64,000 nt of DNA from Burkholderiales bacterium. Lineage in GTDB: Bacteria; Pseudomonadota; Gammaproteobacteria; Burkholderiales; Burkholderiaceae_C. The stretch spans positions 1,053-65,052 of the forward strand of contig JBBQZI010000001.1 in assembly GCA_038207855.1 (NCBI GenBank), given 5' to 3'. The notes below the pieces were generated by a model. The model made no database searches, was not told the origin of the DNA, and was given only the letters and a program-made list of their open reading frames with translations. Shown here piece after piece: positions 4,004 through 56,794 of the stretch. The number at the start of each line of letters is the position of its first letter. Within the stretch, counting starts at the first letter, position 1. The translations under genes were made by a program, and so were the position numbers.

Positions 4004-4057
4004 AAATAGGCCTCTAGCCCTTATATAACCTGCGTAAGTAGCTATTAATTAGATAGT
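4004..4057 (+). repeat. 54-bp dispersed element copy 1 (contains the rph stop codon)
   Basis: AAATAGGCCTC-TAGCCC-TTATATAACC-TGCGTAAGTA-GCTAT-TAATTAG-ATAGT. Confidence 0.9.
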
Positions 4058-4773
4058 GAATGTTTTTGCAACTGAACCAGTTCGCGAATACCTTTATCGG
4101 CCAGCGTGAGCAGCGCGTCCATCTCGAGCCGGGTAAATGCTGCGCCTTCAGCCGTGCCCTGCACTTCAACAAAATGGCCTGAGCCGGTCATCACCACGTT
4201 CATGTCGGTGTCGCAGCTTGAGTCTTCGAGGTAGGCTAAATCCAGCATTGGCACGCCTTGCACGATGCCCACGGAAATGGCTGCAATGTGATCTTTGATT
4301 GGCGACCGCGTTAATTTTCCCTGCTTGATCAGCCAATGGACAGCATCTTGCGCCGCTACAAAAGCGCCAGTAATGGCGGCGGTGCGGGTACCGCCATCGG
4401 CTTGCAGCACATCACAGTCGAGCTGAATGGTGCGCTCACCAAGAAGCTTCAAGTCAAACACGCTGCGCAGGGCGCGCCCAATCAGGCGCTGAATTTCTTG
4501 GGTACGGCCAGTTTGCTTGCCGCGCGCGGCTTCGCGGTCGCTGCGGCTATGGGTAGCGCGCGGCAGCATGCCGTATTCGGCCGTCACCCAGCCCTCACCA
4601 CTGCCTTTTTTGTGGCCAGGCACTTTTTCTTCAACCGAGGCGGTGCACAGCACTTGGGTGTTGCCAAACTCAATCAGCACCGAACCCTCGGCATGCATGG
4701 TGTAGCTGCGTGTCAGGCGCACCGGGCGCATGGCATTATTGTTCCGGCCATCAAGGCGTAAAAATTCAGTCAT
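4045..4773 (-). CDS. rph: Ribonuclease PH
   Basis: [38 protein letters not shown]. Confidence 0.97.
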
Positions 4774-4797
4774 AGACTTCTCTTCAAACAGGGGGAA

Positions 4798-5712
4798 TCA
4801 GATTTTTTTATTGGCAGTGCGGCGGATCGCTGCATTGATTTCAGCGATTGAGCGCTCAATGGCGGCATCGTCCAGATCTTCCATCTCATCGTCAAGGCCA
4901 TCCACTTGCATCGTCGAGGCAAAACCACCGTCGTCAATCGACTCGGTCGAAATGTTGCCCTCTGCGGATTCAACGGCATCGGGTGTTTCCCACGCCATTG
5001 CGATACACGTGACGTTGTCGCACGACTCGCCACCCAGGCGCAGCGCCTTTTCGACCAGCTCAGGCACAGCCACATCGAGCGGCTTTTGGTCGAGTTCATC
5101 AATGATTTCCTGCTCAGGCACGGTCGACCACAAACCATCTGAGCACAGCATGATGCAATCGCCCTGCTGCAGCGACTGCGGTCCGGTCACAGCAAAAATC
5201 GGCTTGATGGGCGACCCCAAACAGGTATACAGCGCATTGCGGTTCGGAAAGTCAGCCTCAACAGCCAGCGGCGATTTGGCCAGATGGCGCTCAATCAGCG
5301 AATGGTCTTTGGTGCGCGTCAGCAAGCCGGCACGCCGGACAAAATAAAGCCGGGAATCGCCGCAATGCGTCCAGGTGACACGGCCCGACTGCACCACCGC
5401 CGCCACAATCGTGGTGCGCGGCGAATCCAACATGCCCCGGCGGGCCGCGTAGCGCAAAATCTGATGCTGCGCGGCCAACAGTGCATCGTTCAGAAAAACG
5501 CTCGCATCGTCCAATTTCGGTCGTGCCTGCTTTTGAAACAAACTCGCAATCGTCTGCAGGGCCAGCTGGGCTGCAATTTCCCCTTCGGGGTGTCCACCCA
5601 TGCCGTCTGCCAGCAAAAAAAGCAGAGATTCGCGGGTGTAGCAATAGCCCATTCGGTCTTCGTTTTCGTCGCGCCCACCCTTGCGACTGACTTGAAAAAC
5701 TGAAAATTTCAT
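4798..5712 (-). CDS. PP2C-family Ser/Thr protein phosphatase with acidic C-terminal tail
   Basis: RDENED, ADGMGGH, HCGDSRLY, LCSDGLW, DNVT motifs. Confidence 0.92.
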   Translation of the reverse strand: MKFSVFQVSRKGGRDENEDRMGYCYTRESLLFLLADGMGGHPEGEIAAQLALQTIASLFQKQARPKLDDASVFLNDALLAAQHQILRYAARRGMLDSPRTTIVAAVVQSGRVTWTHCGDSRLYFVRRAGLLTRTKDHSLIERHLAKSPLAVEADFPNRNALYTCLGSPIKPIFAVTGPQSLQQGDCIMLCSDGLWSTVPEQEIIDELDQKPLDVAVPELVEKALRLGGESCDNVTCIAMAWETPDAVESAEGNISTESIDDGGFASTMQVDGLDDEMEDLDDAAIERSIAEINAAIRRTANKKI

Positions 5713-6716: not shown

Positions 6717-6793
6717 TTTTTTTCAATCAAAGCGCGACAAGCAGCAACAGAATCGGGTTATTCTCAAAGTCATTTCATTGAAGAAACATTCAA

Positions 6794-7711: not shown

Positions 7712-7742
7712 GCGGTTTGGCCCACGTCAAAGGTACATGGTC

Positions 7743-8363: not shown

Positions 8364-8391
8364 TGCGCCTCACCCTGGTTTTGGAGATTTC

Positions 8392-8595
8392 ATGGCCCGT
8401 ATTACCGTCGAAGACTGCTTGTTGCAGATTCCCAACCGCTTTCAATTGGTGTTGGCTGCGTCCTACCGGGCACGCATGCTCAGCCACGGCCACACCGCCA
8501 AGGTTGATTGCAAGAACAAGCCTGGCGTCACCGCCTTGCGTGAAATTGCGGCTGGAAAAGTTGGCATCGAGATGCTGAAAAAGGTGCCGCTTTAA
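8392..8595 (+). CDS. rpoZ: RNA polymerase omega subunit
   Basis: [10 protein letters not shown]...NRFQLVLAA...ALREIA; GGAG SD upstream. Confidence 0.96.
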
Positions 8596-8618
8596 GCGCC
8601 AATGCCTGATCTGCTGAC

Positions 8619-8645
8619 AAAAAGCACCGCTTGCGGTGCTTTTTT
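8619..8645 (+). terminator. Intrinsic terminator after rpoZ (bidirectional shape)
   Basis: AAAAAGCACCGC-TT-GCGGTGCTTTTTT. Confidence 0.85.
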
Positions 8646-10978: not shown

Positions 10979-11539
10979 TCAATGCGTGATGGGCGCCGGG
11001 TAGCGCACACCGGTGACTTCGATCTCAACCGAACCCACTGGGGTACTCAATTTGAGCACATCGCCCAGACGGGCTTTCAGCAACGTTCTGGAGATCGGTG
11101 CCACCCAACTGACCTCCCCTTGGCTGCTGACCGCTTCATCAATACCCATGATGGTGATGGTGCGCTCGACACCCGTGTCATCCACATACACCACGGTAGC
11201 ACCAAAAAATATCTGCTCGTTACCGTGGTGCATTGATGGGTCAACCACCTCAGCAATTTCAAGGCGCTTGGTCAAAAAGCGGATTCTGCGGTCAATTTCG
11301 CGCAGGCGCTTCTTGCCGTAAATGTAGTCGCCATTTTCAGACCGGTCGCCGTTGCTGGCGGCCCAATGAACAGCATCGACAATTTTGGGTCGTTCCACGT
11401 CAATCAGGTCAAACAGCTCCTGCCGCAATACCGCGTAGCCCTGAGGCGTGATGTAGTTTTTGCCGTTGGCTGGCAATTCAGGTAACTGCAAATCATCGTC
11501 GTCATCGCCTTCGACTTCCTTGGTAAAGGCTTTGCTCAT
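10979..11539 (-). CDS. greB: Transcription elongation factor GreB
   Basis: WAASNGDRSENGDYIYGKKRLREIDRRIRFL; start trimmed to MSKAFTKE. Confidence 0.95.
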   Translation of the reverse strand: MSKAFTKEVEGDDDDDLQLPELPANGKNYITPQGYAVLRQELFDLIDVERPKIVDAVHWAASNGDRSENGDYIYGKKRLREIDRRIRFLTKRLEIAEVVDPSMHHGNEQIFFGATVVYVDDTGVERTITIMGIDEAVSSQGEVSWVAPISRTLLKARLGDVLKLSTPVGSVEIEVTGVRYPAPITH

Positions 11540-11547
11540 GTTCAATT

Positions 11548-11601
11548 GCTCTTGAAAATAGAGTGGCTTACGCAGCACCTATATGGGCTACAAGGCTACC
11601 A
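11548..11601 (-). repeat. 54-bp element copy 2 (encodes the nadA C-terminus and stop)
   Basis: TGGTAGCCTTG-TAGCCC-ATATAGGTGC-TGCGTAAGCC-ACTCT-ATTTTCA-AGAGC; same 26-bp box spacing. Confidence 0.75.
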
Positions 11602-12704
11602 GGCACTTGACCGCTTTTAAGAGCTGCAGTAAACGCCAGCATCCGGTCAATCGGCAAACGGGCACGCAGGCCCAAGGCCGGGTCCACATGAACCTGGTTG
11701 GCGCCGGTTTCCAGCACGCGGGCTACATCGGCCAAGCTGTTCATGGCCATCCACGGGCAATGGGCGCAACTCTTGCAAGTCGCGCTATTGCCACCGGTGG
11801 GGGCCTCCAGAAACACCTTGCCAGGATTCAGGGTGCGCAGCTTGTGCATCATGCCGTTGTCGGTGGCCACAATAAACTCTTTGGCATCCATCTCGTGGGC
11901 GGCTTTCAAAATGCCTGAGGTCGAGCCCACCGCATCGGCCAGTGCCACCACGTCCGCTGGGGACTCGGGGTGCACCAGCACTTTGGCACCGGGGTGTTGT
12001 TTCATCAAGGCTTGCAAATCCAAGGCCTTGAACTCGTCGTGCACGATGCAGGAGCCGCCCCACATCACCATATCGGCACCGGTTTCGCGCTGAATGTAGC
12101 CGCCCAAATGCCGGTCAGGTGCCCAGAGAATTTTGTGTCCCTGGTCTTTCAAGGCCTTGACCACGTCAAGTGCGCAGCTCGATGTCACCAGCCAATCAGA
12201 GCGTGCCTTGACGGCCGCGCTGGTGTTGGCATACACCACCACCGTGCGATCCGGGTGAGCATCGCAAAATGCGCCGAATTCATCCGCCGGGCAGCCCAGG
12301 TCAAGCGAACAGGTGGCATCCAAATCGGGCATCAGGATGCGCTTTTCAGGCGACAAAATTTTGGCCGTTTCGCCCATGAAACGCACGCCTGACACGACCA
12401 GGGTTTGGGCCGCGTGGTCGCGGCCAAAACGTGCCATCTCCAGCGAATCACTGACCAGGCCACCGGTTTCTTCGGCCAGGTCTTGTAAATCCGGGTGCAC
12501 GTAGTAGTGCGACACCATAACGGCATTTTTTTCTTTCAACAAGCGGCGGATTTTGTCCTTGAGTTGTGCCCGCTCAATCGCTCCAGGCTCAACTGGCACG
12601 CGTGCCCAAGCATGCTTGGTGGCGCAAACCGGCGCACTACCCGTGTTGAAACGTTCGGGCTGCTCGTAATCAACTTCTTTCAGGCCAGCAACTGGTTCCA
12701 TCAT
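11568..12704 (-). CDS. nadA: Quinolinate synthase
   Basis: SHYY, DSLE, TCSLD, VYANTSA, CIVH, HPE, CPWMAMN; AGGAG SD before 12704. Confidence 0.95.
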
Positions 12705-12705
12705 G

Positions 12706-13596
12706 TCAACTCCTGTTTGCGATTGGCTCAGGGCCAAAGCGCATTGAAAAATCAACCGCCTTGACATCCTTGGTTAGCGTCCCGATCGAAATTCGATCAA
12801 CCCCGGTGGCGGCAATCGCCCGCACGCTTGACAGGTTGACACCCCCCGAGACTTCCAGCGTGGCACGCCCGGCATTGATGCGAACCGCCTCGTGCAACTT
12901 GGCCAACCCCATGTTGTCGAGCAACACCATGGTTGCCCCGGCATGCAAGGCTTCCTCAAGTTGCGCCAGGGTTTCCACCTCAATCTCGACAAACTTGGCG
13001 GTAGGCGCAACCTCAGCGGCACGCTGTAACACGGCGGTCACGCCACCGGCGGCGGCAATGTGGTTTTCCTTGATCAACACCGCGTCATACAAACCCAGAC
13101 GGTGATTCACGCCACCGCCAGTCCGCACGGCGTATTTTTGCGCCAGCCGCAAGCCCGGCACGGTTTTACGGGTATCAACAATGCTGGCGCGCGCGCCCGG
13201 AACCTCACGCACGGCCCGCACATACTCACTGGTCTTGCTCGCCACAGCGCTGAGCAATTGCAAAAAATTAAGCGCGGTGCGCTCGGCCGTCAGCAAGGCT
13301 CGGGCTTGGCCATGCACCTCCAGCACCACCTGATCCGCTTCGCAGCGGTGGCCTTCGGGCACATGCCAGATCACCTGCGCGGTCGGGTCAATCTGCTCAA
13401 AAGCGGCCTGCACCCAGGGCGCGCCACAAATCACTGCTTCTTCCCGGGCAATGATGAAGGCACAAGCGCGCAGCGCTGGGTCAACCAGACCCGCCGTCAG
13501 ATCAGCGCTGCCAATATCTTCCTGCAGCGCGCGCGCAACATCCAGCCGCGCCACTTCGGCCACTGCCGATTTTGAAAGTTCCAACAATGAAGTCAT
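12706..13596 (-). CDS. nadC: Quinolinate phosphoribosyltransferase
   Basis: [37 protein letters not shown]. Confidence 0.96.
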
Positions 13597-13663: not shown

Positions 13664-14689
13664 TCAGGCGATCTGAACCAACTCATCCGTCGGCTCGCGC
13701 CCCATCAGGGATATGACGGCTTGAGATGGGGTCATTTGCCCATCGAGCAAGGCCACGACCGCCTGGGAAATCGGCATATCCACACCGAGGCAGGCTGCAC
13801 GCTGCACCACTGTGCGGGCACTGTAGACACCCTCAGCCACGTGACCGAGCGCGCCAGTCGCTTGCGCCAGCGTCTGCCCTCGTGCCAGTGCCAGACCCAC
13901 CTGGCGGTTGCGCGACAAGTCGCCGGTGGCAGTCAGCACCAGATCGCCCAGTCCACTCAAGCCCATGAAGGTTTCCGCACGCGCCCCAAGCGCCAGCCCC
14001 AGCCGCGTCATCTCGGCCAAGCCACGCGTGATCAGGGCTGCGCGGGCGTTCAGACCCAGATTCAGTCCGTCACACAAACCAGTAGCAATGGCCAGCACGT
14101 TTTTCACCGCCCCGCCGACTTCCACACCGACGATGTCGTCGTTGGCATAGATCCGCAGTGTTGGGCTGTGAAACGCATTCACCAGCGCCTGGCGAAACGG
14201 CTCGTGCGCACTGGCGGCCACCAAAGCGGTTGGCTGGACGCGCGCCACTTCCAGCGCAAAGCTGGGGCCACTGAGCACACCAGCTACCAAATCAGGAGCT
14301 ACCTGCGCTTGTATTTCATGGGCTAGAAGCCCAAAAGAACCTGAAACCGGGGCTTCAAAACCCTTGCATAACCAAGCCACCGGGGCCGGGCAGTCACGCA
14401 ACGCCTGCAGCATCTGGCGCAACGCCGCCATCGGGGTGGCGATCACCACCAAATCAGACGCGCCAGCCAAACTGACCAACTGCGCCAAGGCCACGGCGCT
14501 GAACATCAGGCTGTCGGGCAACGCCACACCGGCCAGATAACGCGCATTTTCCCGCTGCGACTGCATGGCTGATGCCAGCCCCGCGTCACGCGCCCACAAC
14601 GTGACCTGATGGCCAGCTTGGGCGTTACCGGCCGCATTGGCAGCCAATGCCGTGCCCCAGGCACCCGCACCAATCACTATGATTCTCAT
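13664..14689 (-). CDS. gpsA: NAD(P)H-dependent glycerol-3-phosphate dehydrogenase
   Basis: [40 protein letters not shown]. Confidence 0.96.
14283..14336 (-). repeat. 54-bp element copy 3 (inside gpsA)
   Basis: TTTTGGGCTTC-TAGCCC-ATGAAATACA-AGCGCAGGTA-GCTCC-TGATTTG-GTAGC; reads [18 protein letters not shown]. Confidence 0.8.
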
Positions 14690-14729
14690 AGCTTCTTACG
14701 CAGTGAATACAAGGGCTAGAGGCCTAAAA
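14676..14729 (-). repeat. 54-bp element copy 4 (contains the gpsA ATG)
   Basis: TTTTAGGCCTC-TAGCCC-TTGTATTCAC-TGCGTAAGAA-GCTAT-GAGAATC-ATAGT. Confidence 0.9.
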
Positions 14730-14740
14730 CGCTTAAATAA

Positions 14741-22588: not shown

Positions 22589-22605
22589 GTCTTTTTATAT
22601 TAGGG

Positions 22606-22659
22606 TTATTAGGCTATAGCCCTTATACACATTACGGTAATAGCTACTAATTTAATAGC
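22606..22659 (+). repeat. 54-bp element copy 5 (contains the clsB stop)
   Basis: TTATTAGGCTA-TAGCCC-TTATACACAT-TACGGTAATA-GCTAC-TAATTTA-ATAGC. Confidence 0.85.
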
Positions 22660-23854
22660 GTTTTCCATTCATAAAGATCATACTGCGCATAATCCAGAGC
22701 GCCAAGCGGTCCAGCACCTTCTGCCAAACCGGTCTTGCCGCATGCTGCACCGGATCAACCCGCTGCGCACTGTGCGTCAAAGCCTGCTCCAATTGTTGAT
22801 TCAAATCACGTGCAAAAGCGGCATCTTCAACCACCACATTAGCCTCGCGGGCCAGCAAGAGGCTCAAAGGGTCCATATTGGACGAGCCTACCGTCACCCA
22901 GAGGCCATCAATGACCCCGACCTTGGCATGCAAAAAACTGGCACGGTATTCGTAGATTTCGACACCTGCGGCCAGCAATCGGCCGTAAAGCCCGTGTGCC
23001 GCGTGGTACTGCATAAAGTACTCATACCGTCCCTGCAACAGCAAGCGCACACGTACACCGCGCCGTGCCGCATGAATCAAGCCCCTGCGAATCTTGCGGC
23101 CAGGTAAAAAGTAGGCATTGGCCAAAATGATGTCACTGCGCGCTTCCCCCAATGCCTGTCGATAGGCCCGTTCAATCCGGGTGCGATTGCGCACGTTGTC
23201 GCGCAGCACCAATTCGGCCCTGGCACCGCCACTCTGACTCAAACTGTCGGCAATGGGCTGCTGCTTTTCCCGCACAGCCTGTTGCAGCGCTTGCCAGGCA
23301 CTGGCCCAGTCCACCTGCTGGGCGCTTTGCGCGGCCTGCAAACGCCACCAGAACTGCGCCATGGCGGTATGCGCTGTCTGGACAAGGGGGCCGGTTACCC
23401 GTACCGCAAAATCAAAGCGTGGCGAAACAAGGGGGCCGTAACGCGGATCAAACCAGTCATCAAGCACGTTGATGCCACCACAGAATGCGACTTGCCCGTC
23501 AACCACACACAGTTTGCGGTGCAAGCGCCGCCAGCGGCTGGGCACCAGCAAGCCCAGCTTTCCGAGTGGCGAAAAAATGCGCCATTGAACACCTGCAAGT
23601 TCAAGCTGCTCTGGCCAAGGCGAAGGAAAACCAGGCGTGCCGACACCATCAACCACCAGAAAAACGGCCAGACCACGCTGTGCTGCACGCACCAGCGCAA
23701 GCAAAACGCCCTCGCCCGATCCGACCACATTGAAAATATAAGTTTCAAACCGAACCTCATACGTGGCGGCATCAATGGCATCAATCAGTGCCGGGAAATA
23801 CTCCTGCGCACCCTTCAAAAGCTTGAGTTGATGGCCGCTGTGGCGTTCTGTCAT
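22652..23854 (-). CDS. clsB: Cardiolipin synthase B
   Basis: Two HKD motifs (HRKLCVVD, HAKVGVID); downstream of a YbhP-like EEP gene. Confidence 0.9.
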   Translation of the reverse strand: MTERHSGHQLKLLKGAQEYFPALIDAIDAATYEVRFETYIFNVVGSGEGVLLALVRAAQRGLAVFLVVDGVGTPGFPSPWPEQLELAGVQWRIFSPLGKLGLLVPSRWRRLHRKLCVVDGQVAFCGGINVLDDWFDPRYGPLVSPRFDFAVRVTGPLVQTAHTAMAQFWWRLQAAQSAQQVDWASAWQALQQAVREKQQPIADSLSQSGGARAELVLRDNVRNRTRIERAYRQALGEARSDIILANAYFLPGRKIRRGLIHAARRGVRVRLLLQGRYEYFMQYHAAHGLYGRLLAAGVEIYEYRASFLHAKVGVIDGLWVTVGSSNMDPLSLLLAREANVVVEDAAFARDLNQQLEQALTHSAQRVDPVQHAARPVWQKVLDRLALWIMRSMIFMNGKRY

Positions 23855-32025: not shown

Positions 32026-32067
32026 GGCTTTAGTGGTGGTGAAACCAGGTTGGGTAAATTCATAACG

Positions 32068-32121
32068 AAATTAGCTTCTAGCCCTTATAAAATAAGCGCT
32101 AGAAGCTATTATATTGATAGC
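32068..32121 (+). repeat. 54-bp element copy 6 (intergenic, DUF971-ubiE)
   Basis: AAATTAGCTTC-TAGCCC-TTATAAAATA-AGCGCTAGAA-GCTAT-TATATTG-ATAGC. Confidence 0.9.
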
Positions 32122-32127
32122 TATCAA

Positions 32128-32582: not shown

Positions 32583-35500
32583 TCAGACCAGCACGCGCTC
32601 AATGCCGCCATCATTGGCCAGCTTAACGTAATCGGGCATCCACTGGTCACCCAGAATTTGATTGGCCATTTCGACCACAATGTAATCCGCTTCCAGCAAG
32701 CCGTTTTGCAGGTCTTCGCCAAAGCGGCTCAAGCCTTGCAAACAAGCCGGGCACGAGGTCAGCATTTTGATGTTGGCTTGTGGGCCCACCGCACCGGAGG
32801 CGCGCAACTGCGCTTCACCCTTACGGATTTCTTCTTCCTTGCGAAAACGCACCTGGGTTGAGATGTCCGGCCGATTCAGCGCCAGCGTGCCGGATTCACC
32901 GCAGCAGCGCTCCGACTGGATCACGTTGTCACCCAGCAAGGCCTTGACGGTTTTGAGCGGTTCCTGCAGCTTCATCGGGCTGTGACACGGGTCGTGGAAC
33001 AAAAAGCCACCGGCATTGGGCAGCGTGATGCCCTTCTCAAGCAAGTACTCATGGATGTCAATCATGCGGCTGCCCGGAAATATCTTGTCAAACTCGTAAT
33101 CCTGCAACTGGTCATAACACGTGCCACAACTCACCACCACGGTCTTGATGTCGAGGTAATTGAGCGTGTTGGCCACGCGGTGAAACAGCACGCGGTTGTC
33201 GGTGATCATCTTCTCGGCTTTGTCAAACTGACCACCGCCGCGCTGCGGATAACCGCAACACAAGTAGCCCGGTGGCAGCACGGTTTGCACCCCCGCGTGC
33301 CACAGCATGGCCTGCGTAGCCAAGCCAACCTGGCTGAACAAACGCTCCGATCCACAACCAGGGAAATAAAACACCGCTTCGGTCTCGGCCGTGGTGGTGT
33401 TCGGGTTGCGGATGATCGGCACGTAGTCTTTGTCTTCAATATCGAGCAAGGCACGCGCGGTTTTCTTCGGCAGGCCACCCGGCAACTTCTTGTTGACGAA
33501 GTGGATGATCTGCTCTTTGATAGGGGCCGTGCCCAACGTGGCCGGCGGTGCCTTGGTCTGCTTGCGGCCGATGACCCTAAACACATCGACCGCCATGCGC
33601 TGCGCCCTAATCGCCACATTGACCATCACCGAACGGGCTAGTCTGATGGTCTCCGGGTTGCTCGCATTGAGCAAAAACATGGCCGCAGCACCGGCTGGAC
33701 GGAACGTCTTCTTGCCCATCTTGCGCAACAGGTTGCGCATGTTCATGGAAACATCACCAAAATCAATGTTCACCGGGCACGGGCTCAAACACTTGTGGCA
33801 CACCGTGCAGTGGTCCGCCACGTCTTCAAACTCTTGCCAATGCTTGATCGACACACCGCGGCGCGTCTGCTCTTCGTACAAAAACGCTTCCACCAGCAGC
33901 GAGGTCGCCAAAATCTTGTTGCGCGGGCTATAGAGCAAATTGGCGCGCGGCACATGGGTGGCGCACACCGGTTTGCACTTGCCACAGCGCAGGCAATCTT
34001 TGATGCTGTCGGCAATCGCACCAATGTCGCTCTGCTGCATGATGAGCGACTCATGGCCCATCAAGCCAAAACTTGGCGTGTAGGCGTTGGTCAGGTCGGC
34101 ATATATAGGTAAATTGCCCTCTAGCCCATGTCCTGCTTGCGTAAGTAGCTCCTTATTTCGAAGCAACTTACCTTTGTTGAATCGCCCTTCGGGGTCAATC
34201 CTGGCTTTGTAGTCGGTGAACGGCTGCAGTTCGGCATCGGTCAAAAATTCAAGCTTGGTGATGCCAATGCCGTGCTCTCCCGAGATCACGCCGTCCAGCG
34301 AACGCGCCAGCGCCATGATGCGTTTGACCGCGCCATGGGCGGCTTGCAGCATCTGGTAATCGTCGCTGTTGACCGGGATATTGGTGTGCACATTGCCATC
34401 ACCGGCGTGCATGTGCAGCGCCACCCAAACGCGGCCTTTGAGCACACGCTGGTGGATCGCGTTGCATTCCTTCAAGATCGGCTCAAAAGCCGCGCCTGAG
34501 AAAATTTGCTGCAAAGGCTGACGAATTTGCGTCTTCCAGCTGGCGCGCAAGGAATGGTCCTGCAGCTGGATAAACAGCGGCTCCACATCCTGCAGCCAGC
34601 CGGCCCAAAGCCTGCGAACCTCGCTCAGCAGACCCAGCGCCTGGGCGACCCGGTCTTCCAGCAACTCTGCAGCAGTAATATCACCCGCATCATCCAAATG
34701 GCCCAAAGGCAACTTGCCCTGGCTGAAAAAATCTTCCAACGCATCGCACAGCGCCAGTTTGTTGGCCAGACTGAGCTCGATGTTGATGCGCTCAATGCCA
34801 TCGGTGTATTCGGCCATGCGCGGCAACGGAATCACCACGTCTTCATTGATCTTGAAAGCGTTGGTGTGCTTGGAAATCGCCGCGGTGCGCTTGCGATCCA
34901 GCCAGAACTTTTTGCGCGCCTCGGGGCTGATGGCAATGAAACCCTCGCCGTGGCGGGTATTGGCCATGCGCACCACTTCACTGGTAACGCGCGCCACGTC
35001 GTCCGCATCATCGCCGGCAATATCGCCAAACAGCACCATCTTGGGCACCGTGCTGCTGGAGCCCGCTTGCTGCAATCCACCGCGCTTGCTCTTGGTCGCA
35101 TACCCGACCGCCTTCAGGTAACGGTCGTCCAGGTGTTCCAGCCCGGCCAGTACCACACCGCTGCGCTTTTGCTCAGCAAACATGTAGTCCTTGATGTCCA
35201 CAATGCTCGGCACCGCGTCTTTGGCATTGCCAAAAAACTCCAGACAGACGGTGCGGGTGTGTTTGGGCATGCGGTGCACCACCCAGCGCGCGCTGGTGAT
35301 CAGGCCGTCGCAACCCTCTTTTTGAATGCCGGGCAGACCGCTCAAAAACTTGTCGGTCACGTCCTTGCCCAAGCCTTCTTTGCGGAACGTCTTGCCGGGA
35401 ATATCCAGCCGCTCAGTGCGCAACGGGGTCTTGCCATCGGCCTTGAAATACTGCAGCTCAAAACTGGCCACCTCGACGTCATGGATCTTGCCCATGTTGT

Positions 35501-41752: not shown

Positions 41753-42031
41753 TCAGCTCCGCCAGCCGCGCTGCAACCACCACTGACAACTTGCAGCACA
41801 CGCCACCAAAGCCAGGTAGGTCAGCATCATGCCATCATGCCCAAATAGCAACAGTCCAGCAACAAGCAGCACCACGCATACTACAAAATTAATAGCTATC
41901 TGTGCAAGCAGTCTATGGGCTGCAGGTCTTTTTTTCATAAAAATCTTGGACAGGATCGGCACCAGCAAGGCCAGCCAGAAGGCCGGTGCCAGTAAGTTGA
42001 TGGCGTGGTTGAGCAGCGCGAGAATGCCCAT
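41753..42031 (-). CDS. Small membrane protein of unknown function
   Basis: About three hydrophobic segments; divergent from hemA. Confidence 0.7.
   Translation of the reverse strand: MGILALLNHAINLLAPAFWLALLVPILSKIFMKKRPAAHRLLAQIAINFVVCVVLLVAGLLLFGHDGMMLTYLALVACAASCQWWLQRGWRS
41880..41933 (-). repeat. 54-bp element copy 8 (inside the small membrane protein gene)
   Basis: AAAAAGACCTG-CAGCCC-ATAGACTGCT-TGCACAGATA-GCTAT-TAATTTT-GTAGT; reads KRPAAHRLLAQIAINFV. Confidence 0.8.
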
Positions 42032-43482: not shown

Positions 43483-44601
43483 ATGAAACCCTTTCTTCGC
43501 CAACAACTTGCCCGCTACGCTGACCGCCTGGGCGAGCTTGAATTTTTGCTGTCACGCCCGGACATCATGAGCGACATGGCGCAGTTTTTACTGCTCTCGC
43601 GTGAGCACACCGATGTAGCCGCCGTGGCCAGCCGCTGGCTGCGCTACCAGCAGCGCGAATCTGACTTGGCAGCCGCCCAGGAACTGCTCAAAGCCTCCAG
43701 CGACGATGCCGATATGGCAGAAATGGCGCAAGAAGAAGTCGACAGCGCCAACGCCGAGTTGCAGCAGCTCGATACCGAATTGCAGCGCATGCTACTGCCC
43801 AAAGACCCGGATGACGCACGCCCGGCGTTTGTCGAAATCCGCGCTGGCACCGGTGGCGACGAATCAGCCCTGTTTGCCGCCGACCTGGCCCGCATGTATC
43901 TGCGCTACTGTGACCGCAAGGGCTGGAAGCACGAGATCATCAGCGAATCTGCCAGCGAACTTGGCGGCTACAAAGAGCTGGTGCTGCGCGTTGAAGGCGG
44001 GGCTGGTGACGGCCCCTCCGGTAGCGGAGTCTATGGCGCACTCAAGTTCGAGTCGGGCGGCCACCGCGTGCAACGCGTACCGGTGACCGAGACCCAGGGT
44101 CGCATCCACACCAGCGCTTGCACCGTGGCCGTGATGGCCGAGCCCGATGAAGCCGAAGCTATCAAGATCAACCCGGCCGATCTGCGCATTGATACCTACC
44201 GCGCGAGCGGTGCCGGTGGCCAGCACATCAACAAAACCGACTCGGCTGTGCGCATTACCCACCTGCCCACCGGCACCGTGGCGGAATGCCAGGATGGCCG
44301 CAGCCAGCACGCCAACAAGGCCCAGGCGTTGCGCGTGTTGACCGCCCGCATTCAAGAAAAAGACCGTGCCGAGCGCGCTGCCAAAGAGTCGGCCGAGCGC
44401 AAAGGCCTGGTCGGCAGCGGCGACCGCAGCGACCGCATTCGCACCTACAACTTTCCCCAAGGCCGCCTGACCGACCACCGCATCAACCTGACCCTCTACA
44501 AATTGTTGACCATCATAGAAGGTGACTTGGATGATGTGATTGGCGCCCTGCAAGCGCACGAGGCAGCGCAGCAACTGGCCGCGCTGGAACTCAATGCTTG
44601 A
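43483..44601 (+). CDS. prfA: Peptide chain release factor 1
   Basis: [10 protein letters not shown] (PxT), GAGGQH, RTYNFPQ. Confidence 0.97.
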
Positions 44602-44607
44602 GTAACC

Positions 44608-44661
44608 AAATATGCTTCTAGCCCTTATGTAACATGCGTAAGTAGCTATTATTTATATAGT
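44608..44661 (+). repeat. 54-bp element copy 9 (fills the prfA-prmC spacer)
   Basis: AAATATGCTTC-TAGCCC-TTATGTAACA-TGCGTAAGTA-GCTAT-TATTTAT-ATAGT. Confidence 0.92.
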
Positions 44662-44663
44662 AA

Positions 44664-45575
44664 ATGACTGATATCGGCACACACACTCAAACACTGGCGC
44701 AAGCCCTGCTGAGCCTGCAGACGCAGGGGCTGGAGCGGCTCGACGCGCAATTGCTGCTGCTGCATGTGCTCGGCCAGCCGCTAGCGCAGCGTGGCTGGCT
44801 GCTGGCGCACAACACCAATCTGTTGCCCACTGCCATTGAAAGCCAGCTCCAGCTGCTGGCGCAGCGCCGCCTGGCGGGTGAACCCGTGGCCTACCTGACG
44901 GGCTCTAAAGCGTTTTACGGTCTGGATTTACAGGTTAACCCCGATGTATTGGTGCCCCGGCCCGATACCGAAACCCTGGTCGATTGGGCGCTGGAGCAGC
45001 TGGCGGCGCTGTTAACACCACCGACCACGGCACACGACCATTCTTTGCACAGCGCATGCGCAGCACCGAGCGTGCTTGATCTGGGCACCGGCAGCGGGGC
45101 CATTGCCTTGGCGCTCAAGGCCAAGCAGCCAGCGTTGCAAGTCTGGGCGACCGATTTCAGCGCAACAGCGCTCGCCACGGCCCAGATTAATGCGCAGCGA
45201 CTCCAGCTTGGCGTGCAGTTCAGCCAAGGAGCCTGGTTTGCCGCCCTGCCCGCCCGCGCCATGGCGTTCGACTGCATCGTCTCCAACCCGCCCTATATCG
45301 CCGATGCCGACCCGCACCTGGCTGCCCTCAGCTTTGAGCCACAGTCAGCTCTCACCAGCGGTGTTGACGGGCTTGATGACCTGCGCCAGATCATTGCCGA
45401 TGCGCCACACCACTTAAAGGCCGGCGGTTGGTTGCTGTTGGAGCATGGCTACGACCAAGCGCTCGCGGTACGCCACTTGCTGCAAGCACGCGGCTTTGCC
45501 CAAGTGCAATCGCGCTGCGACCTTTCTGGCATTGAGCGCTGCAGCGGCGGGCAATGGCCAGCCCAACGTCAATGA
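44664..45575 (+). CDS. prmC: Release factor glutamine methyltransferase
   Basis: PRPDTE, DLGTGSG, SNPPY. Confidence 0.95.
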   Translation: MTDIGTHTQTLAQALLSLQTQGLERLDAQLLLLHVLGQPLAQRGWLLAHNTNLLPTAIESQLQLLAQRRLAGEPVAYLTGSKAFYGLDLQVNPDVLVPRPDTETLVDWALEQLAALLTPPTTAHDHSLHSACAAPSVLDLGTGSGAIALALKAKQPALQVWATDFSATALATAQINAQRLQLGVQFSQGAWFAALPARAMAFDCIVSNPPYIADADPHLAALSFEPQSALTSGVDGLDDLRQIIADAPHHLKAGGWLLLEHGYDQALAVRHLLQARGFAQVQSRCDLSGIERCSGGQWPAQRQ

Positions 45576-46269: not shown

Positions 46270-46889
46270 TCCCACAGCCGCTTGGCCCCTAGCACCGCGT
46301 TGGGGTAAGCGGCCTGCCCGCGTGAGCCGTTGTAGCGGCCCAGCGCCAGGAACAAGTCGCCGCCCTCACGGTCCAGATAGTGGCGCAAGATGACACAGCC
46401 AAAGCGCAAGTTGGTCTGCATGTTAAACAGCTTGCCGGCATCGCCATCGCCCAGCAGCCGCGTCCAAAACGGCATCACCTGCATGTAGCCGCGCGCGCCG
46501 ACGCTGCTGACGGCAAATTTGCGGAAATTGCTCTCCACCTGGATCAATCCCAACACCAGCGACACATCAAGCCCAGCGCGCGTGGCTTCATACCAGACGG
46601 ACTGCAAAAACTCTTGGCGCACCCTCCAGTCGGGTTTCTTCTTTCTCAGTCGCTCGCTCATGACACCCAGCCAGCGCAGGTAAACCAGCCGTGATTCGGT
46701 GTCTGGAAACTCCGGAACCAAAGGGGCATGGTTCGCAATGGCAGAGCTCAGCGCTGTCCGCACCGAGTCAATCAACGGCTCCTCGGCCTGCCTGCCAGCC
46801 CAGGATTGCTCTTGAAACAAGAGCGCACTAAGCCCTGCTAATCTGGGCAAAGTCCGTAAAACGCTTGCTATAAAGGTGCGCCGGGTCAA
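46266..46889 (-). CDS. Lytic transglycosylase (SLT domain)
   Basis: IQVES, GARGYMQVMP, YNG motifs; RR-containing N-terminus. Confidence 0.9.
   Translation of the reverse strand: MTRRTFIASVLRTLPRLAGLSALLFQEQSWAGRQAEEPLIDSVRTALSSAIANHAPLVPEFPDTESRLVYLRWLGVMSERLRKKKPDWRVRQEFLQSVWYEATRAGLDVSLVLGLIQVESNFRKFAVSSVGARGYMQVMPFWTRLLGDGDAGKLFNMQTNLRFGCVILRHYLDREGGDLFLALGRYNGSRGQAAYPNAVLGAKRLWD
46808..46861 (-). repeat. 54-bp element copy 10 (degenerate, inside the SLT N-terminus)
   Basis: TTTTACGGACT-TTGCCC-AGATTAGCAG-GGCTTAGTGC-GCTCT-TGTTTCA-AGAGC; same spacing. Confidence 0.6.
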
Positions 46890-49937: not shown

Positions 49938-51083
49938 TTAACGGGGTTTAGCGGCCAGCACCAGGTTATCGCGGTGCACCATCTCGGGCTCGGCCGCGTA
50001 GCCCAGCAAGGCCTCAAACGCGGCAGACGGTTTACGACAAATCAGGCGCGCCTCGGCGCTGGCGTAATTGGCCAAACCGCGGGCCACCTCAGTGCCATTG
50101 GCAGCACGAATCGCAATCACATCACCACGCGAAAAATCACCCTCCACGCCGGTCATACCAATCGGCAGCAGGCTGGAGCCGCCCAGACGGAGTTTTTCAA
50201 CGGCACCGGCATCCACCGTGACGGAGCCACGCATTTGGAGATGATCAGCGATCCACTGTTTGCGTGCCTGGGTCTTCTGCGTCGGAGCCACCAGCAGCGT
50301 GCCAATCGACTCACCCAAACTCAACCGTAACAGCGCATCGGGCTCACGACCCCAGGCGATGATGGTCGAGGCACCCGAACCCGCCGCCCGCTTGGCCGCC
50401 AATATTTTGGTGATCATGCCGCCACGGCCCAGGCTGGAGCCAGCGCCACCCGCCATGACTTCCAGGGCCGGATCACCGGCTTGCGCCGTATGAACAAATT
50501 GAGCGCTGGTATCTTTGCGCGGGTCGGCGGTGTACAGTCCTTTTTGATCAGTCAAAATCACCAACGCGTCGGCCTCGACCAGATTGGCCACCAACGCACC
50601 CAGGGTGTCGTTGTCACCAAACTTGATCTCGTCGTTGACCACGGTGTCGTTCTCGTTGATGACCGGCACCACACCAAGTTTGAGCAGAGTCAACAAGGTC
50701 GAGCGGGCATTCAGGTAGCGTTCGCGGTCAGCCAGATCGGCGTGCGTGAGCAGCACCTGGGCGCTGCCCAGACCATGCTCGCGCAGCTTGGTTTCGTACA
50801 TTTGCGCCAGACCCATTTGCCCAACGGCGGCGGCGGCCTGCAATTCATGGATGGCACGGGGTCGCGTGGTCCAGCCCAGGCGCTTCATGCCTTCGGCAAT
50901 AGCACCGCTGGAGACCATGATGACCTCACGCCCCTGCTTCACCAGCACCGCCATCTGCCGGCACCATTCACCAATGGCAACTTCGTCCAGGCCTCGTCCC
51001 TCATTGGTCACCAGGCTGGAGCCTACTTTGACGATCACACGGCGGGCATCACGCAATGGAGAATGAGCTTTTTCTTGAGTCAT
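49938..51083 (-). CDS. proB: Glutamate 5-kinase
   Basis: VKVGSS, VSSGA, INENDTV, FGDND, GGMITK, PUA domain. Confidence 0.97.
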
Positions 51084-51135
51084 TTTGGCCTGTAGCCCTT
51101 TTACTATATGCGCAAGTAGCTATTAAATATATAGC
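51082..51135 (+). repeat. 54-bp element copy 11 (fills the obgE-proB spacer)
   Basis: ATTTTGGCCTG-TAGCCC-TTTTACTATA-TGCGCAAGTA-GCTAT-TAAATAT-ATAGC. Confidence 0.92.
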
Positions 51136-51138
51136 AAA

Positions 51139-52537
<1,399 letters not shown>

Positions 52538-52548
52538 GACTCAGCTCC

Positions 52549-52860
52549 TTATGCAGTGATGGCGCCGATCAGCAGTTCAGTGAACTGCTGGCGATGCCCT
52601 TGACGTTTTTGATAGTGCTTGCGACGGCGCATTTTGAAAATGCTGACCTTGTCGTGCTTACCATGTGCCAACACTGTGACACTAACAGTTGCGCCGGACA
52701 CCAAGGGTGTGCCAACCTTTAACTCTGCGCCGCTACCGACTGCCAGAACCTGGTCAAACACAATCTCTTGGCCAACGTCCGCAGCAATCTGTTCTACTTT
52801 AATTTTTTCGCCAGCAGCAACTTTATATTGTTTGCCACCAGTTTTTATGACCGCGTACAT
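52549..52860 (-). CDS. rplU: 50S ribosomal protein L21
   Basis: [18 protein letters not shown]. Confidence 0.98.
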
Positions 52861-53007
52861 ATTAACCTCTTCGATATAGCTCCGCGAACGGATTTTCGCA
52901 GAGCCTCGGATTATGTCACAGCACAACCTGAAGCGCAAATAAAGCGTTTCAGGCCGTCCCAAAACCACTGCAAACATAGTGCAAACGCGCCGTGGGACAA
53001 TCTCAAG

Positions 53008-55071
53008 ATGCACCTACTATTTGAAGAAACCGGAAAATTCCTGGCCGGACGCCTGCTCTCCGAGACCGATGCTTCGGCACAGGTCGAGCTTGATAGCGGC
53101 AAACGGGTCAAGGTCAAGGCGGCCAATATCCTGATCAAGTTCGACAAGCCCGAACCAGCCCAGCTGATGGCAGCCGGACAGGCCGTCGCCAGCGGCATCG
53201 AGCTGGAGCTGGCTTGGGAGTTTGCCAACGAAGAAGAGTTTGGCTTTGCCGACTTGGCACGCGATTATTTTTCCGCCCAGGCCACTCTGGCTGAGCAGGC
53301 CGGCATGTTGTTCGCCTTGTATGACGCGCCGCATTACTTTCGCCGCGCCGGCAAAGGGCGCTTTCGCAAAGCTTCGGCTGACATTTTGGCGCTGGCGCTG
53401 GCCGCTATCGAGAAAAAGAAACAAGTCGCCCTGCAAATTGAAGATTGGGTGAAGGCCTTGAGTGCGGGCGAGTGCCCGCAGCCAATTCGCGACCAGCTCT
53501 ACAAAATTCTGTTCAAACCCGACAAAAACGCGCCAGAGTACAAGGCGGTGGTTGAGGCCTCACGCGCCACCCATCTGGGTCCGCTGGACCTGCTGATCAA
53601 GGCCGGTGCGATCGATTCACCCTACCAGTTTCACTGGAAGCGCTTTCTGCTGGAAAACTTCCCCAAAGGCACCGGTTTCCCAAAAGTTGAGGCTCCGCTC
53701 ATCACCGACGAGTTGGCTCTGTCCACGGCCCGCGCCTTCTCGATTGACGACTCAGCCACCACCGAGATTGACGATGCCCTGTCGGTTCAGGGCCTGGGTA
53801 GCGGCACGGTGCTGCTGGGCATTCACATCGCCGCGCCAGGCCTGGCCATCAAACCGGGTAGCGCGATTGACCAGCTCGGCCGCTCGCGCCTGTCGACCGT
53901 TTACATGCCGGGCTACAAGCTCACCATGCTGCCCGACGAGGTGGTGCAAAACTACACCCTGATGGAGGGTCGCGACTGCCCGGCCGTGTCGCTGTATGTC
54001 ACGCTTGATGAGGCCACGCTGGAGATCAAGGAAAGCGTGACCAAGCTGGAGCGGGTGCACATCGGGGCCAATTTGCGCCACGATCAGTTGGATGCCGTGG
54101 TCACGACCGCTTGGTTGGAAGACCCAGCGTTTATGCATGAAATTGACCCGCATCCCTTACAGAATAAGCGCGAGCAGCTATCATTTTTATTCCGCTTGGC
54201 AAAAGACCTGAAAGCCAAGCGCGAGATCGTGCGCGGCAAGCCCGAGAACTTCAACCGGCCCGATTACAACTACCGGCTGGTCGGCAATGACGGCGCTGAG
54301 CCACAAGGCTCCGAAGAAGTGCACATCAGCATTCGCCAGCGCGGCGCACCGCTCGATTTGATTGTGTCCGAGGCCATGATTCTGGCCAACAGCACCTGGG
54401 GCGGCTGGATGGCTGAGTTGGGTGTGCCGGGCATTTACCGCAGCCAGGCCAGCATGGCACCGGGCGTGAAGGTGCGCATGGGAACCAAAGCGCAGCCGCA
54501 CGCCGGTATTGGCGTGAAAAGCTATGCCTGGAGCAGCTCGCCACTGCGCCGCTACGTTGATCTGGTTAACCAATGGCAAATCATTGCCTGTGCCCGCCAC
54601 GGCAAAACTGCTGCGCTAGCGGCCCCCTTCAAGCCCAAAGATGCCGAGCTGTTTTCCATCATCAGCAGCTTTGATGCGGCCTACTTTGCCTACAACGGTT
54701 TTCAGAACGCCATGGAGCGCTTCTGGATTTTGAAATACATCGAGCAGCAAGGCATTACCGAAATTGAGGCCACCCTGTTCAAAGACAACCTGGTGCGGGC
54801 CGACCACCTGCCGCTGGTATTGCCGGTAGCCGGGGCGCAAAGCCTGCCACGCGGCGCGCGCGTGATGGTGCGCCTGGGTGACATTGACGAGGTGTCGCTG
54901 GATATTCACGGCACCGTCACGGCGCGGCTGGATGCCGAGCCCGATGCAGCCCTGGACGACGAGGCAGAAGACGACGACACCGTGGTTGGGCCGATTGCCA
55001 TTGCCATGGACCTCAGCGATGGCGAAGCTTCCGGCAGCGCCGCTGCCCCTGGCGATCATCCCGAGCCGTGA
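53008..55071 (+). CDS. RNB-domain (RNase II/R family) exoribonuclease
   Basis: [15 protein letters not shown] catalytic motif, [17 protein letters not shown]; start trimmed to MHLLFEE. Confidence 0.9.
54140..54193 (+). repeat. 54-bp element copy 12 (inside the RNB gene)
   Basis: AAATTGACCCG-CATCCC-TTACAGAATA-AGCGCGAGCA-GCTAT-CATTTTT-ATTCC; reads [17 protein letters not shown]. Confidence 0.75.
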
Positions 55072-55925
55072 ACCTGCGGTCATTCAGCACCCTGCAAATC
55101 GCGCTTGGCGCGTCCATTGCCGTGCACGCAGTACTGCTGACGGTGCGCTTTGTCGACCCTGAAGCCTTCAACCGGGTGTTTGAAGACACCCCGCTGGAAG
55201 TCATTTTGGTCAACGCCCGCACCAACGAGAAGCCTGAAAAAGCCCGCGCCATTGCCCAAGCCAATATGGCCGGTGGTGGTGAGCTGGAAAAGGGTCGTGC
55301 CACCAGCCCGCTGCCGCCCGCCCTGATTTCCATGACGGGCGAAGACAGCGAACAAGACCAGCAGCGCCAATTGCGCGACATGCGCGAGCAGCAAAACCTG
55401 ATGCTCGCGCAAGTCAAGACAATCTTGGCGGCCATGCCACCACCCGATCCACAACAAGTCAACCCGACACCCGAGCAAGCCCTGCGTGAGCAAAAACGCC
55501 GCCAACTGATCCGGCTGCTGGCGGAAATTGAGCGGCGCATCAACGAAGAAAATGCCCGCCCCCGAAAGCGTTACATCAGTCCCGCCACGCGCGAAGCGGT
55601 CTACGCTGTCTACTACGACCATTTGCGCCACGCCATTGAAGACAAAGGCACAGAAAACTTTCCGCAATTAAACGGCCAAAAGCTTTATGGAGAGCTCACC
55701 ATGATCGTCAACGTCAACCACGATGGCCGGGTGATCTCGACTGAAGTGGTGCAAAGCTCAGGTATACCGGCACTCGACCGGCGCGCGCAAGCCATTGCCA
55801 AAAGCGCAGCACCTTTTGGCAAGTTCAGCCCGGCCATGCGCCGCCAGGCAGACCAAATTGCGGTCGTGTCGCGCTTCAAATTCACCCGTGATGACACGCT
55901 TGAAACCAAACTCAGCGCCAAATAA
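55068..55925 (+). CDS. TonB/TolA C-terminal domain protein
   Basis: N-terminal TM helix with SxxxH, coiled coil, SSG..ALD C-terminal domain. Confidence 0.85.
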   Translation: MNLRSFSTLQIALGASIAVHAVLLTVRFVDPEAFNRVFEDTPLEVILVNARTNEKPEKARAIAQANMAGGGELEKGRATSPLPPALISMTGEDSEQDQQRQLRDMREQQNLMLAQVKTILAAMPPPDPQQVNPTPEQALREQKRRQLIRLLAEIERRINEENARPRKRYISPATREAVYAVYYDHLRHAIEDKGTENFPQLNGQKLYGELTMIVNVNHDGRVISTEVVQSSGIPALDRRAQAIAKSAAPFGKFSPAMRRQADQIAVVSRFKFTRDDTLETKLSAK

Positions 55926-55948
55926 AACCAAGCACTTTTAAAGCCACC

Positions 55949-56794
55949 ATGAGCAACGATCTTTATTGCGTGATGGGCCATCCGGTGGCCCACAGTCAAT
56001 CACCCTGGATTCACACCCGTTTTGCTGAACTGACCGGGCAAAAGCTGAACTACACCAAGCGTGAAATCCCGCTCGATCACTTTGCCGACAGCGTGCAAGC
56101 ATTCAACCTTGAAGGCGGACGCGGCTGCAACATCACCGTGCCCTTCAAGTTTGAAGCGGCTGCGCTGGCTACCCACACCAGCGAACGCGCCCGGCTGGCC
56201 CAAGCCTGTAACGTGCTGACTTTCAAAGATGGGCAAATCCTGGCTGACAACACCGATGGCATCGGACTGGTCGATGACATCGAGCAAGGCGCACAAATTG
56301 GGCTGCTGGGAAAACGCATTTTGCTGATGGGTGCCGGTGGTGCAGCCGCTGGCGTGCTGGGGCCGCTGATCCATGCAAAACCGGCCCACATCAGCGTGGC
56401 CAATCGCACAGTCCACAAGGCGGCCGACCTGGTGGCGCGCCACCAGTCGTTAGTATTGCTACAAAATACAGAGCTATCCGCGCATGATTTAAAAGGGCTA
56501 GAGGGTGATTTTGATGTTGTTATCAATGCCACCGCCAGTAGCCTGGGCGGCCATGGCGTACCGGTCAGCGCGACGGTGCTCAAGCCCGGTGCACTGGCCT
56601 ACGACATGATGTACGGGCCCAGTGCCAAGGCTTTCATGGACTGGGCGCGTGCGCACGGTGCCGTGGCGCGTGACGGCCTGGGCATGCTGGTCGAACAAGC
56701 CGCGCAAGCCTTTCTGATCTGGCGTGGTGTCATGCCGCCGGCGCAGCAGGTGCTGGCCGAACTGCGCCAGCACCTGAGCACATCCGCAAAATGA
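55949..56794 (+). CDS. aroE: Shikimate dehydrogenase
   Basis: HSQSP, NITVPFK, NTDG, GAGGAA, NRT, INAT, GLGMLVEQA. Confidence 0.96.
   Translation: MSNDLYCVMGHPVAHSQSPWIHTRFAELTGQKLNYTKREIPLDHFADSVQAFNLEGGRGCNITVPFKFEAAALATHTSERARLAQACNVLTFKDGQILADNTDGIGLVDDIEQGAQIGLLGKRILLMGAGGAAAGVLGPLIHAKPAHISVANRTVHKAADLVARHQSLVLLQNTELSAHDLKGLEGDFDVVINATASSLGGHGVPVSATVLKPGALAYDMMYGPSAKAFMDWARAHGAVARDGLGMLVEQAAQAFLIWRGVMPPAQQVLAELRQHLSTSAK
56458..56511 (-). repeat. 54-bp element copy 13 (inside aroE, antisense)
   Basis: AAATCACCCTC-TAGCCC-TTTTAAATCA-TGCGCGGATA-GCTCT-GTATTTT-GTAGC; protein reads LQNTELSAHDLKGLEGDF. Confidence 0.85.

Follow-up and report, generated by a model that had tools for sequence, protein, structure and literature searches.

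Very short sequence words are known to accumulate in situ within genes, among them the uptake signal sequences (USS) of Pasteurellaceae, the DNA uptake sequences (DUS) of Neisseriaceae, Chi and HIP1. Here we describe a 56-bp, four-box word that appears to accumulate in genes of the Comamonadaceae, a large bacterial family of ecological importance in freshwater, glaciers and wastewater, and that was noticed as 13 dispersed copies in a 64,000-nucleotide stretch of DNA from a Burkholderiales bacterium (NCBI GenBank assembly GCA_038207855.1, contig JBBQZI010000001.1, positions 1,053 to 65,052 of the forward strand; the whole of this stretch is referred to as the window). Like USS and DUS (PMC2817400, PMC3630211), the element is present in hundreds of copies in both orientations and has an in-situ origin that includes genes. 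It further resembles them in its few preferred reading frames, its location in less constrained protein parts, its even spacing, its occupancy of orthologous sites, its lineage dialects and its enrichment downstream of genes. Another group of dispersed repeats, comprising the repetitive extragenic palindromic (REP) elements, the bacterial interspersed mosaic elements (BIME) and the systems formed by REP doublets (REPIN) and REP-associated tyrosine transposases (RAYT), shares with the element the hundreds of copies, the preference for co-oriented and convergent spacers, often with contact to a stop codon, the vertical inheritance, the lineage-specific variants and the disappearance from some lineages (PMC3733652, PMC2817692). 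In contrast to these repeats, the element has no G+C-rich palindrome, compensatory pairs, inverted dimers or co-occurrence with the Y1_Tnp transposase domain, and 44% of its copies are overlays on genes; the family is not mentioned in the REP survey PMC3733652.

Rickettsia palindromic elements (RPE) are likewise short repeats that are read in frame within housekeeping genes, but RPEs insert and add residues, whereas here the protein length is unchanged and native codons are recoded. RPE-like in-frame insertion, our initial reading of the genic copies, was ruled out by the comparisons of orthologue and Pfam lengths given below. The beta-proteobacterial repeat element family BRE (Hot et al., 2011; PMC3110155), which has been reported from Polaromonas, Rhodoferax, Acidovorax and Delftia and partly from coding sequence, is set apart by its description, as its members are 75–91 bp long, have 69% G+C and are often in tandem, compared with 56–59 bp, about 40% G+C and single copies here. 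Parts of the element itself have very probably been reported. The survey of Tong et al. (2017; PMC5217627) gives as “potential novel motifs” the pair ATAGCT(N)22CAAAAG, with 125 copies in Polaromonas naphthalenivorans CJ2, the pair GCTTAT(N)5AAGCG, with 114 copies in Acidovorax ebreus TPSY, as well as 140 pairs found in Rhodoferax ferrireducens T118. These motifs, with 114–171 copies, are mostly intergenic, many of them in convergent and few in divergent spacers, and the supplement of that study contains GCTAT/ATAGC pairs 12 bp apart and, 21 bp upstream of GCTAT, a TTGCG box. Judging from these spacings, and not from the genomes, the reported pairs are very probably the present family seen piecemeal and in another dialect. 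The study reported pentamer pairs only, without a full-length model, intragenic overlays, evolutionary analysis or function. The original prediction made on the window had recognized no named family; pieces of the element had very probably already been listed as unexplained motif pairs.

The assembly that contains the window (G000 in our numbering; 3.116 Mb in 309 contigs, 58% G+C, of Rhodoferax/Polaromonas type) was scanned in full with a profile hidden Markov model that was seeded on the 13 window copies and then iterated. It holds 528–541 copies, one per 5.8 kb, 276 on the plus and 252 on the minus strand, counts that are slightly raised by redundant contig pairs. The element is a DNA word of fixed geometry, about 56 bp long (56–59 bp), A/T-rich at about 40% G+C and dispersed singly, in which an A/T run is followed by GGCCTCTAGCCC, about 10 variable bases, TGCG, a semi-variable stretch of five bases and AGCTAT-N7-ATAGCA. 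Its two ends are unrelated (A/T run and GGCC on one side, ATAGCA on the other), and the internal dyad is the sole inverted repeat. Chance is excluded because the spaced pattern TAGCCC-N11-GCG-N5-AGCTA has 243 matches in G000 and its backwards-reading control has none. The prediction of 13 copies on both strands is borne out, as the element is present at all 13 places in the predicted orientation, with the box 26 bp before the GCTAT arm and a dyad spacer of 7 bp. As members of one family, 12 of the 13 were recovered by the profile (E ≤ 0.01), which added no further copy in the window; the minus-strand copy at 46808 is marginal and falls below the threshold. That TAGCCC occurs in all 13 was too strong a claim, since the copies at 41880, 46808 and 54140 read CAGCCC, TTGCCC and CATCCC, respectively. 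Frequent indels, which would favor a MITE (miniature inverted-repeat transposable element), are not a feature of the family: the alignment of 538 copies from G000, with a summed information of about 55 bits, has just four insert columns. As predicted, neither terminal inverted repeats nor target duplications were seen at the inspected junctions or between filled and empty sites.

What the original prediction had missed is that four of the 13 window copies (14283, 34111, 54140 and 56458) lie inside genes and that several others overlap start or stop codons. On a simple codon-usage gene map of G000 (2935 genes, 90% coding), 238 of the 538 copies (44%) are located wholly within open reading frames (ORFs), of which 127 are sense and 111 antisense copies, and the word recodes about 8% of the genes. 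The host ORFs are real genes, exemplified in the window by gpsA, aroE, an RNase R-like gene and a gene encoding a 1310-aa FAD/FeS oxidoreductase. All six reading frames are used, with two of them accounting for 185 of the 238 genic copies; these two read the conserved TAG triplets out of frame, producing Ala/Leu-rich peptides, and elsewhere the stop triplets are mutated. In five motif-poor species of the same genus, aroE and gpsA are as long as in G000 and encode a homologous peptide where the motif lies, and in gpsA the native peptide is conserved while the differences in G000 are chiefly synonymous and spell the boxes. A further comparison was based on 400 kb of genome G008, in which zero copies of the element were found. 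Seventeen of the 23 genic copies with a G008 orthologue align without gaps and the other six have gaps of 2–15 aa, none being of 18–20 aa. At the 23 high-information positions of 16 gap-free genic copies the consensus is matched at 86% in G000 and at 50% in G008, and where the two genomes differ at such positions (162 sites) the consensus base is in G000 at 143 and in G008 at 9. The low-information positions are 53% identical between both genomes, compared with 67% in the flanks; because this identity persists, the genic tract is homologous and was not overwritten wholesale. In agreement with this, 14 Pfam domains that span top-scoring genic copies range from 20 residues shorter to 17 residues longer than their profiles, most of them differing by close to zero. 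Amino acids are nevertheless altered, essential genes included, with a local protein identity of 0.2–0.7 at the genic copies vs. 0.7–0.9 globally. On these sequence comparisons, the genic copies are a length-neutral recoding of native codons, base by base, and not insertions.

Orthologous sites are shared across genomes, the word being retained there over long evolutionary spans. At the window sites 41904, 44634, 51108, 54164 and 56484, up to four of the five sister species G005, G010, G017, G020 and G021 have the word as well, in the same orientation and at a DNA identity of 73–83%; the boxes are conserved and the variable positions have diverged. Each of these orthologous copies follows the dialect of its own genome (e.g., CCCCCG after TAGCCC in G005 and G021). 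In redundant, co-assembled variant contigs of G000 (47 kb, 92% identity, 12 copies), the high-information positions have diverged by 7.0% and the low-information positions by 16.3% (p = 0.0009), with 9.2% for the flanks; high-information positions thus evolve 2.3 times slower than low-information ones. Every pair of copies that agrees at 30 or more of the 38 variable positions also has long common flanks, either because the contigs are redundant or because of local duplication, and there is therefore no sign of recent copying. Plasmid and phage collections yielded no match to the element, and an exact-protein search for close strains in which presence/absence polymorphism could be seen gave no contig. 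Orthologous sites, length-neutral overlays, box constraint and the lack of recent copies together uphold the earlier proposal of a multipartite site under selection over that of a decaying MITE. The redundant contig pairs of G000, among them C111/C108, C239/C8, C26/C6, C59/C167 and C307/C23, are co-assembled strain variants or paralogous regions, and lend themselves to comparison within the population. Local duplications that comprise a copy and more than 100 bp of flank are found at G000:C15:17014 and 17441 and at G000:C11:16312 and 18838; these are ordinary segmental duplications and not element mobility.

Between genes, the element favors gene 3′ ends, with 2.0 copies per kb of convergent spacer (75 copies), 1.14 per kb of co-oriented spacer and 0.27 per kb of divergent spacer (21 copies). 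No orientation bias relative to transcription is apparent, neither in genes (127/111) nor in co-oriented spacers (88/92). Copies are spaced more evenly than random placement predicts (42 gaps of less than 1 kb vs. 81 ± 8.5), and only three pairs are closer than 300 bp, all of them direct repeats and none an inverted dimer. Orientation relative to local GC skew is co-oriented for 58% of the copies in G000 (p = 0.0015), and in the complete genome G020, in which dnaA is located at base 400, 25 of the 55 exact matches are co-oriented and 30 are not, the terminus being assumed opposite dnaA. The analyses of periodicity and strand bias that had been suggested bring to light an even spacing and a polarity of the KOPS (FtsK-orienting polar sequences) or matS kind that is weak (G000) or absent (G020); the strong co-orientation with replication of polar chromosome motifs such as KOPS and Chi is not seen. 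Under the same assumption on the terminus, the exact-pattern subset of G020 counts 17 forward and 38 reverse matches, without a flip between replichores.

Across the family, the exact pattern has matches in 92 of 401 genomes and 47 of 166 genera, figures that badly undercount dialects, and an extended exact pattern was found in Rhodoferax, Polaromonas, Giesbergeria, Simplicispira, Curvibacter, Candidatus Aalborgicola and unclassified Burkholderiales. A sequence-only covariance model (R1), built from a gap-free alignment of 142 copies of many genera, was run on 52 Comamonadaceae genomes and found at least 106 copies in each of 38, several of which have 0–5 exact matches. Three genomes that the exact pattern had misclassified (G323, G046 and G258) all carry dialect copies. 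With this same model, six species of the genus of the window have 0–7 copies and G279 has nine, and six other genera have none. In a tree of the gene at 43483–44601, the motif-free genera form a separate clade (four of the six had usable sequence) and the motif-poor species from the genus of the window branch from among motif-rich species, from which at least three independent losses follow, on a single gene with moderate support. The lineages taken as losses are G007, G008, the group of G004, G014 and G016, G023 and G279, in addition to the six motif-free genera. Base composition was discarded as a cause of loss, since G+C content fails to separate motif-rich from motif-poor genomes. As for a driver, the co-occurring RAYT that had been proposed for profiling shows no correlation with the motif: Y1_Tnp (PF01797) is found in 41 of 44 genomes, motif-free ones included, and is missing in the motif-rich G403, which has 270 exact pattern matches. 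The near-universal protein behind this count is an ORF of about 240 aa, single in each genome (G000:C61:5478-5813 and its homologues in the 41 genomes), whose match to Y1_Tnp is weak (E about 1e-10 to 1e-15); it resembles a domesticated RAYT and is unrelated to the distribution of the motif. A canonical IS200-type TnpA (Y1_Tnp, E = 4e-44) is encoded at G000:C72:10979-11344 (L206), with similar copies in G004, G010, G014 and G005.

Taken as a whole, these observations point, with a little more belief than doubt on our side, to a cis-acting DNA signal with a putative trans-acting reader, whose sites would be kept by biased fixation and for which a USS/DUS-like transmission bias is the likeliest cause. 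In this model, the element would act on double-stranded DNA through its A/T run, GGCCTCTAGCCC box, TGCG box and AGCTAT-N7-ATAGC dyad at fixed distances, and we infer that the word is bound by protein. One sequence-specific factor could read it, probably as a multimer, with a dimer on the dyad and contacts 1 and 2.5 helical turns upstream. The copies persist at fixed chromosomal sites and are not the product of ongoing transposition, and biased fixation of single substitutions would push each site to, and hold it at, the current word of the lineage, even in essential genes and at the cost of amino-acid changes. Loss of the factor in a lineage would then lead to decay of the genic copies and deletion of the intergenic ones. 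By analogy with USS and DUS, the source of the bias is most likely a transmission advantage of word-bearing DNA in uptake, transfer or recombination between cells, with weak host-level selection for a REP/BIME-like chromosomal function as a close second. Site persistence, movement to the consensus, box constraint, indifference to transcription and nested wholesale loss argue for a dispensable reader with drifting specificity, and the recoded essential proteins, the separation of coupled genes and the dispensability make transmission bias somewhat likelier than host benefit. ComEC and the type IV pilus protein PilO were found in every genome tested, which does no more than permit uptake.

Several findings weigh against a transmission-biased signal of this kind. 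In 21 motif-bearing spacers for which both flanking orthologues were found in G008, G000 is longer by a median of 56 bp, while the length difference in 117 motif-free spacers is −1 bp; some motif spacers are equal in length in G008, which keeps a degenerate copy there. At the junction 44601/44664, compared in 19 genomes, motif-bearing genomes have a spacer of 60–94 bp that carries the word (dialect copies are present in two other genera too), the two genes are translationally coupled in the six motif-free genera, with a stop/start overlap of 1–8 bp (e.g., ATGA, GTGA), and motif-poor species of the same genus have a spacer of 3–21 bp or an overlap. There are therefore two routes of origin, with DNA added between genes and recoding within them, and because intergenic copies are added DNA, some copying process must also have existed. 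To our knowledge, uptake sequences do not add DNA to spacers. Moreover, the core of USS and DUS measures 9–12 bp, compared with about 56 bp, four boxes and about 55 bits here, and word length and added spacer DNA together fit neither the USS/DUS nor the REP/BIME model cleanly. Copies with the full internal 5-bp palindrome are in five-fold excess, which reflects one common sub-type and not compensatory change, and mutual information is limited to adjacent positions, the link of positions 21–22 with 30–31 being weak; such sub-types with linked neighboring positions are not predicted by a simple additive binding model. No binding protein was found among the candidates examined, as RAYT, ComEC, PilO and TfoX do not track the motif. 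Competence genes were rejected as a correlate, in contrast to USS and DUS, and nothing links the word to competence specifically, because ComEC and PilO occur in all genomes tested and TfoX shows no correlation with the motif. Literature searches found no report of uptake sequences or natural transformation in Comamonadaceae.

The added spacer DNA could be accounted for by an old mobile element of non-autonomous type (similar to a MITE, REP or RPE), which a transposase, perhaps a domesticated one, would have copied and which would now be largely fossil; the intragenic copies would then be in-frame insertions. Besides the 56 bp by which motif spacers exceed those of G008, such an element would fit the parting of a gene pair that overlaps in six motif-free genera, the sub-types and the repeated total loss, which resembles the decay of REPINs after RAYT loss. 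This explains spacers, not genes: genic copies are length-neutral and keep host codons at variable positions, and for them a mobile origin is largely refuted. Near-identical pairs that always share long flanks, the current constraint on high-information positions, the plasmid and phage collections devoid of matches, the lack of terminal inverted repeats and target duplications at inspected junctions, and the presence of Y1_Tnp/RAYT in motif-free genomes together with its absence from G403 all make it improbable for the family as a whole. A host function of REP/BIME type, in which a topoisomerase, a nucleoid-associated protein or a similar factor would land on the word at the 3′ ends of transcription units and the word would be maintained by weak selection on the host, effective in a large population, and not by transmission bias, appears less improbable, though still rather unlikely. 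The ranking of spacer densities matches where transcription-driven positive supercoils build up, a niche that REP elements also occupy (PMC3733652), and the even spacing, the independence of orientation and the conservation of a site downstream of rplT across genera agree with it. However, at least three nested lineages have lost essentially all copies, so that the function would be dispensable, and altered residues in essential genes (identity 0.2–0.7) and split coupled genes are costs that a tiny benefit per site would hardly repay. We know of no nucleoid protein or gyrase site of such length and information.

A speculative variant, to which we give a minority but appreciable chance, is a Comamonadaceae DNA-transfer or recombination signal of a type not yet known, that is, a third and structurally new class of “self-DNA” signal for uptake or transfer, about 56 bp long and in four boxes, with a multimeric reader that has been lost repeatedly; if so, transmission bias would be so strong that essential genes are recoded and coupled ones separated. 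A role at the RNA level, as terminator, mRNA stabilizer, small RNA or riboswitch-like leader, is very improbable. The preference for positions downstream of genes and a terminator-like hairpin at the rplT site would suit it, but the word has no orientation bias with respect to transcription, and Watson-Crick pair counts in the dyad, a 5-bp A/T-rich stem, equal the expectation from independent columns, with no compensatory covariation there or elsewhere and mutual information confined to neighboring positions. No Rfam match, which had been set as a check, was obtained for the window at gathering scores or for five copy-bearing loci at E ≤ 0.1. Consensus scans for terminators and promoters stayed at the level of shuffled sequence, and only two weak terminator-like sites touch copies. 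What we take to be resemblances to dif, to the T-N11-A architecture of OxyR/LysR sites, to the R388 nic region and to the DnaA box were also considered, and none fits the spacing on inspection.

For a transmission-biased signal or any other use of the word, the recoded genes and the dialects tracked at fixed sites argue for a trans-acting reader that co-evolves with hundreds of sites, and the repeated clean losses within one genus should make this reader findable by phylogenetic profiling. Whether an uptake receptor, a recombination or transfer factor, or a nucleoid or topology protein, it would add a new piece of chromosome biology. The word also accounts for odd A/T-rich, rare-codon patches in Comamonadaceae genes, and is usable as a sensitive marker for taxonomy and binning.

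Table 1. Copies of the element in the window, with profile scores (nhmmer), and related loci in other genomes.
Feature	Coordinates	Strand	Score (bits)	Context
Copy 1	4001..4059	+	54.2	Intergenic, between minus-strand genes 3398-4000 and 4045-4773
Copy 2	11546..11604	-	25.2	Weak member
Copy 3	14281..14339	-	36.2	Within gpsA, sense frame; native-codon overlay, no added length
Copy 4	14674..14732	-	39.8	gpsA start; ATG and codons 2-5 within dyad
Copy 5	22603..22661	+	34.5	Intergenic; degenerate copy retained at the site in G008
Copy 6	32065..32123	+	47.7	Intergenic between minus-strand genes; spacer 102 bp vs. 30 bp in G008
Copy 7	34108..34166	+	40.5	Antisense in minus-strand gene 32583-36515
Copy 8	41878..41936	-	31.4	Overlaps start of small ORF; orthologous copies in G020, G005 and G021
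Copy 9	44605..44663	+	49.5	Fills 62-bp spacer between genes 43483-44601 and 44664-45575
Copy 10	46806..46864	-		Marginal, below profile threshold; geometry right; TTTGCCC and GCTCT-N7-AGAGC
Copy 11	51079..51137	+	53.6	Intergenic; orthologous copies in G021, G020 and G010
Copy 12	54137..54195	+	32.1	Within RNase R-like gene 52768-55071, sense frame
Copy 13	56456..56514	-	43.6	Antisense in aroE (55949-56794), length-neutral
rplT-downstream loci L180-L184 (G257, G353, G124, G317, G405)	~base 2500 of each			Intergenic

The individual window copies are listed in Table 1. Copy 1 overlaps at its 3′ end the stop codon of the upstream gene, and copy 2 straddles the junction of the overlapping minus-strand ORFs 10979-11578 and 11568-12755. 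The gpsA gene that hosts copy 3 has five motif-poor orthologues of equal length, and its Pfam domain NAD_Gly3P_dh_N spans 159 aa for 152 profile positions; the spacer of copy 4, at the start of the same gene, measures 63 bp in G000 and 62 bp in G008, alike in length and different in sequence. The host of copy 7 is a 1310-aa oxidoreductase with DUF3683, FAD-oxidase, Fer4 and CCG domains, and the copy falls in an inter-domain linker as judged by Pfam, at a site where the G008 orthologue is 10 aa shorter. In copy 12 both TAGs are mutated in its sense frame and there is no gap with respect to G008, the copy being conserved in G010, G020, G017 and G005; copy 13 is conserved in G005, G017, G010 and G020.

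Two minor observations concern particular copies. One copy lies just downstream of rplT, the gene for ribosomal protein L20, and conservation of this copy extends to at least two other genera. At this site an additional inverted half, CAAGGGCTAG, is present upstream and pairs with the TAGCCCTTG box; in the rplT transcript the pairing makes a hairpin of 10 bp with a T-rich tail behind it, and the whole has the look of a terminator. In copy 10, CTTTGCCC stands in place of the usual CTCTAGCCC. This variant is similar to the CTTTTGCG box that the motif pairs of PMC5217627 imply for Polaromonas naphthalenivorans, and copy 10 may represent a second dialect that coexists at low frequency with the first.

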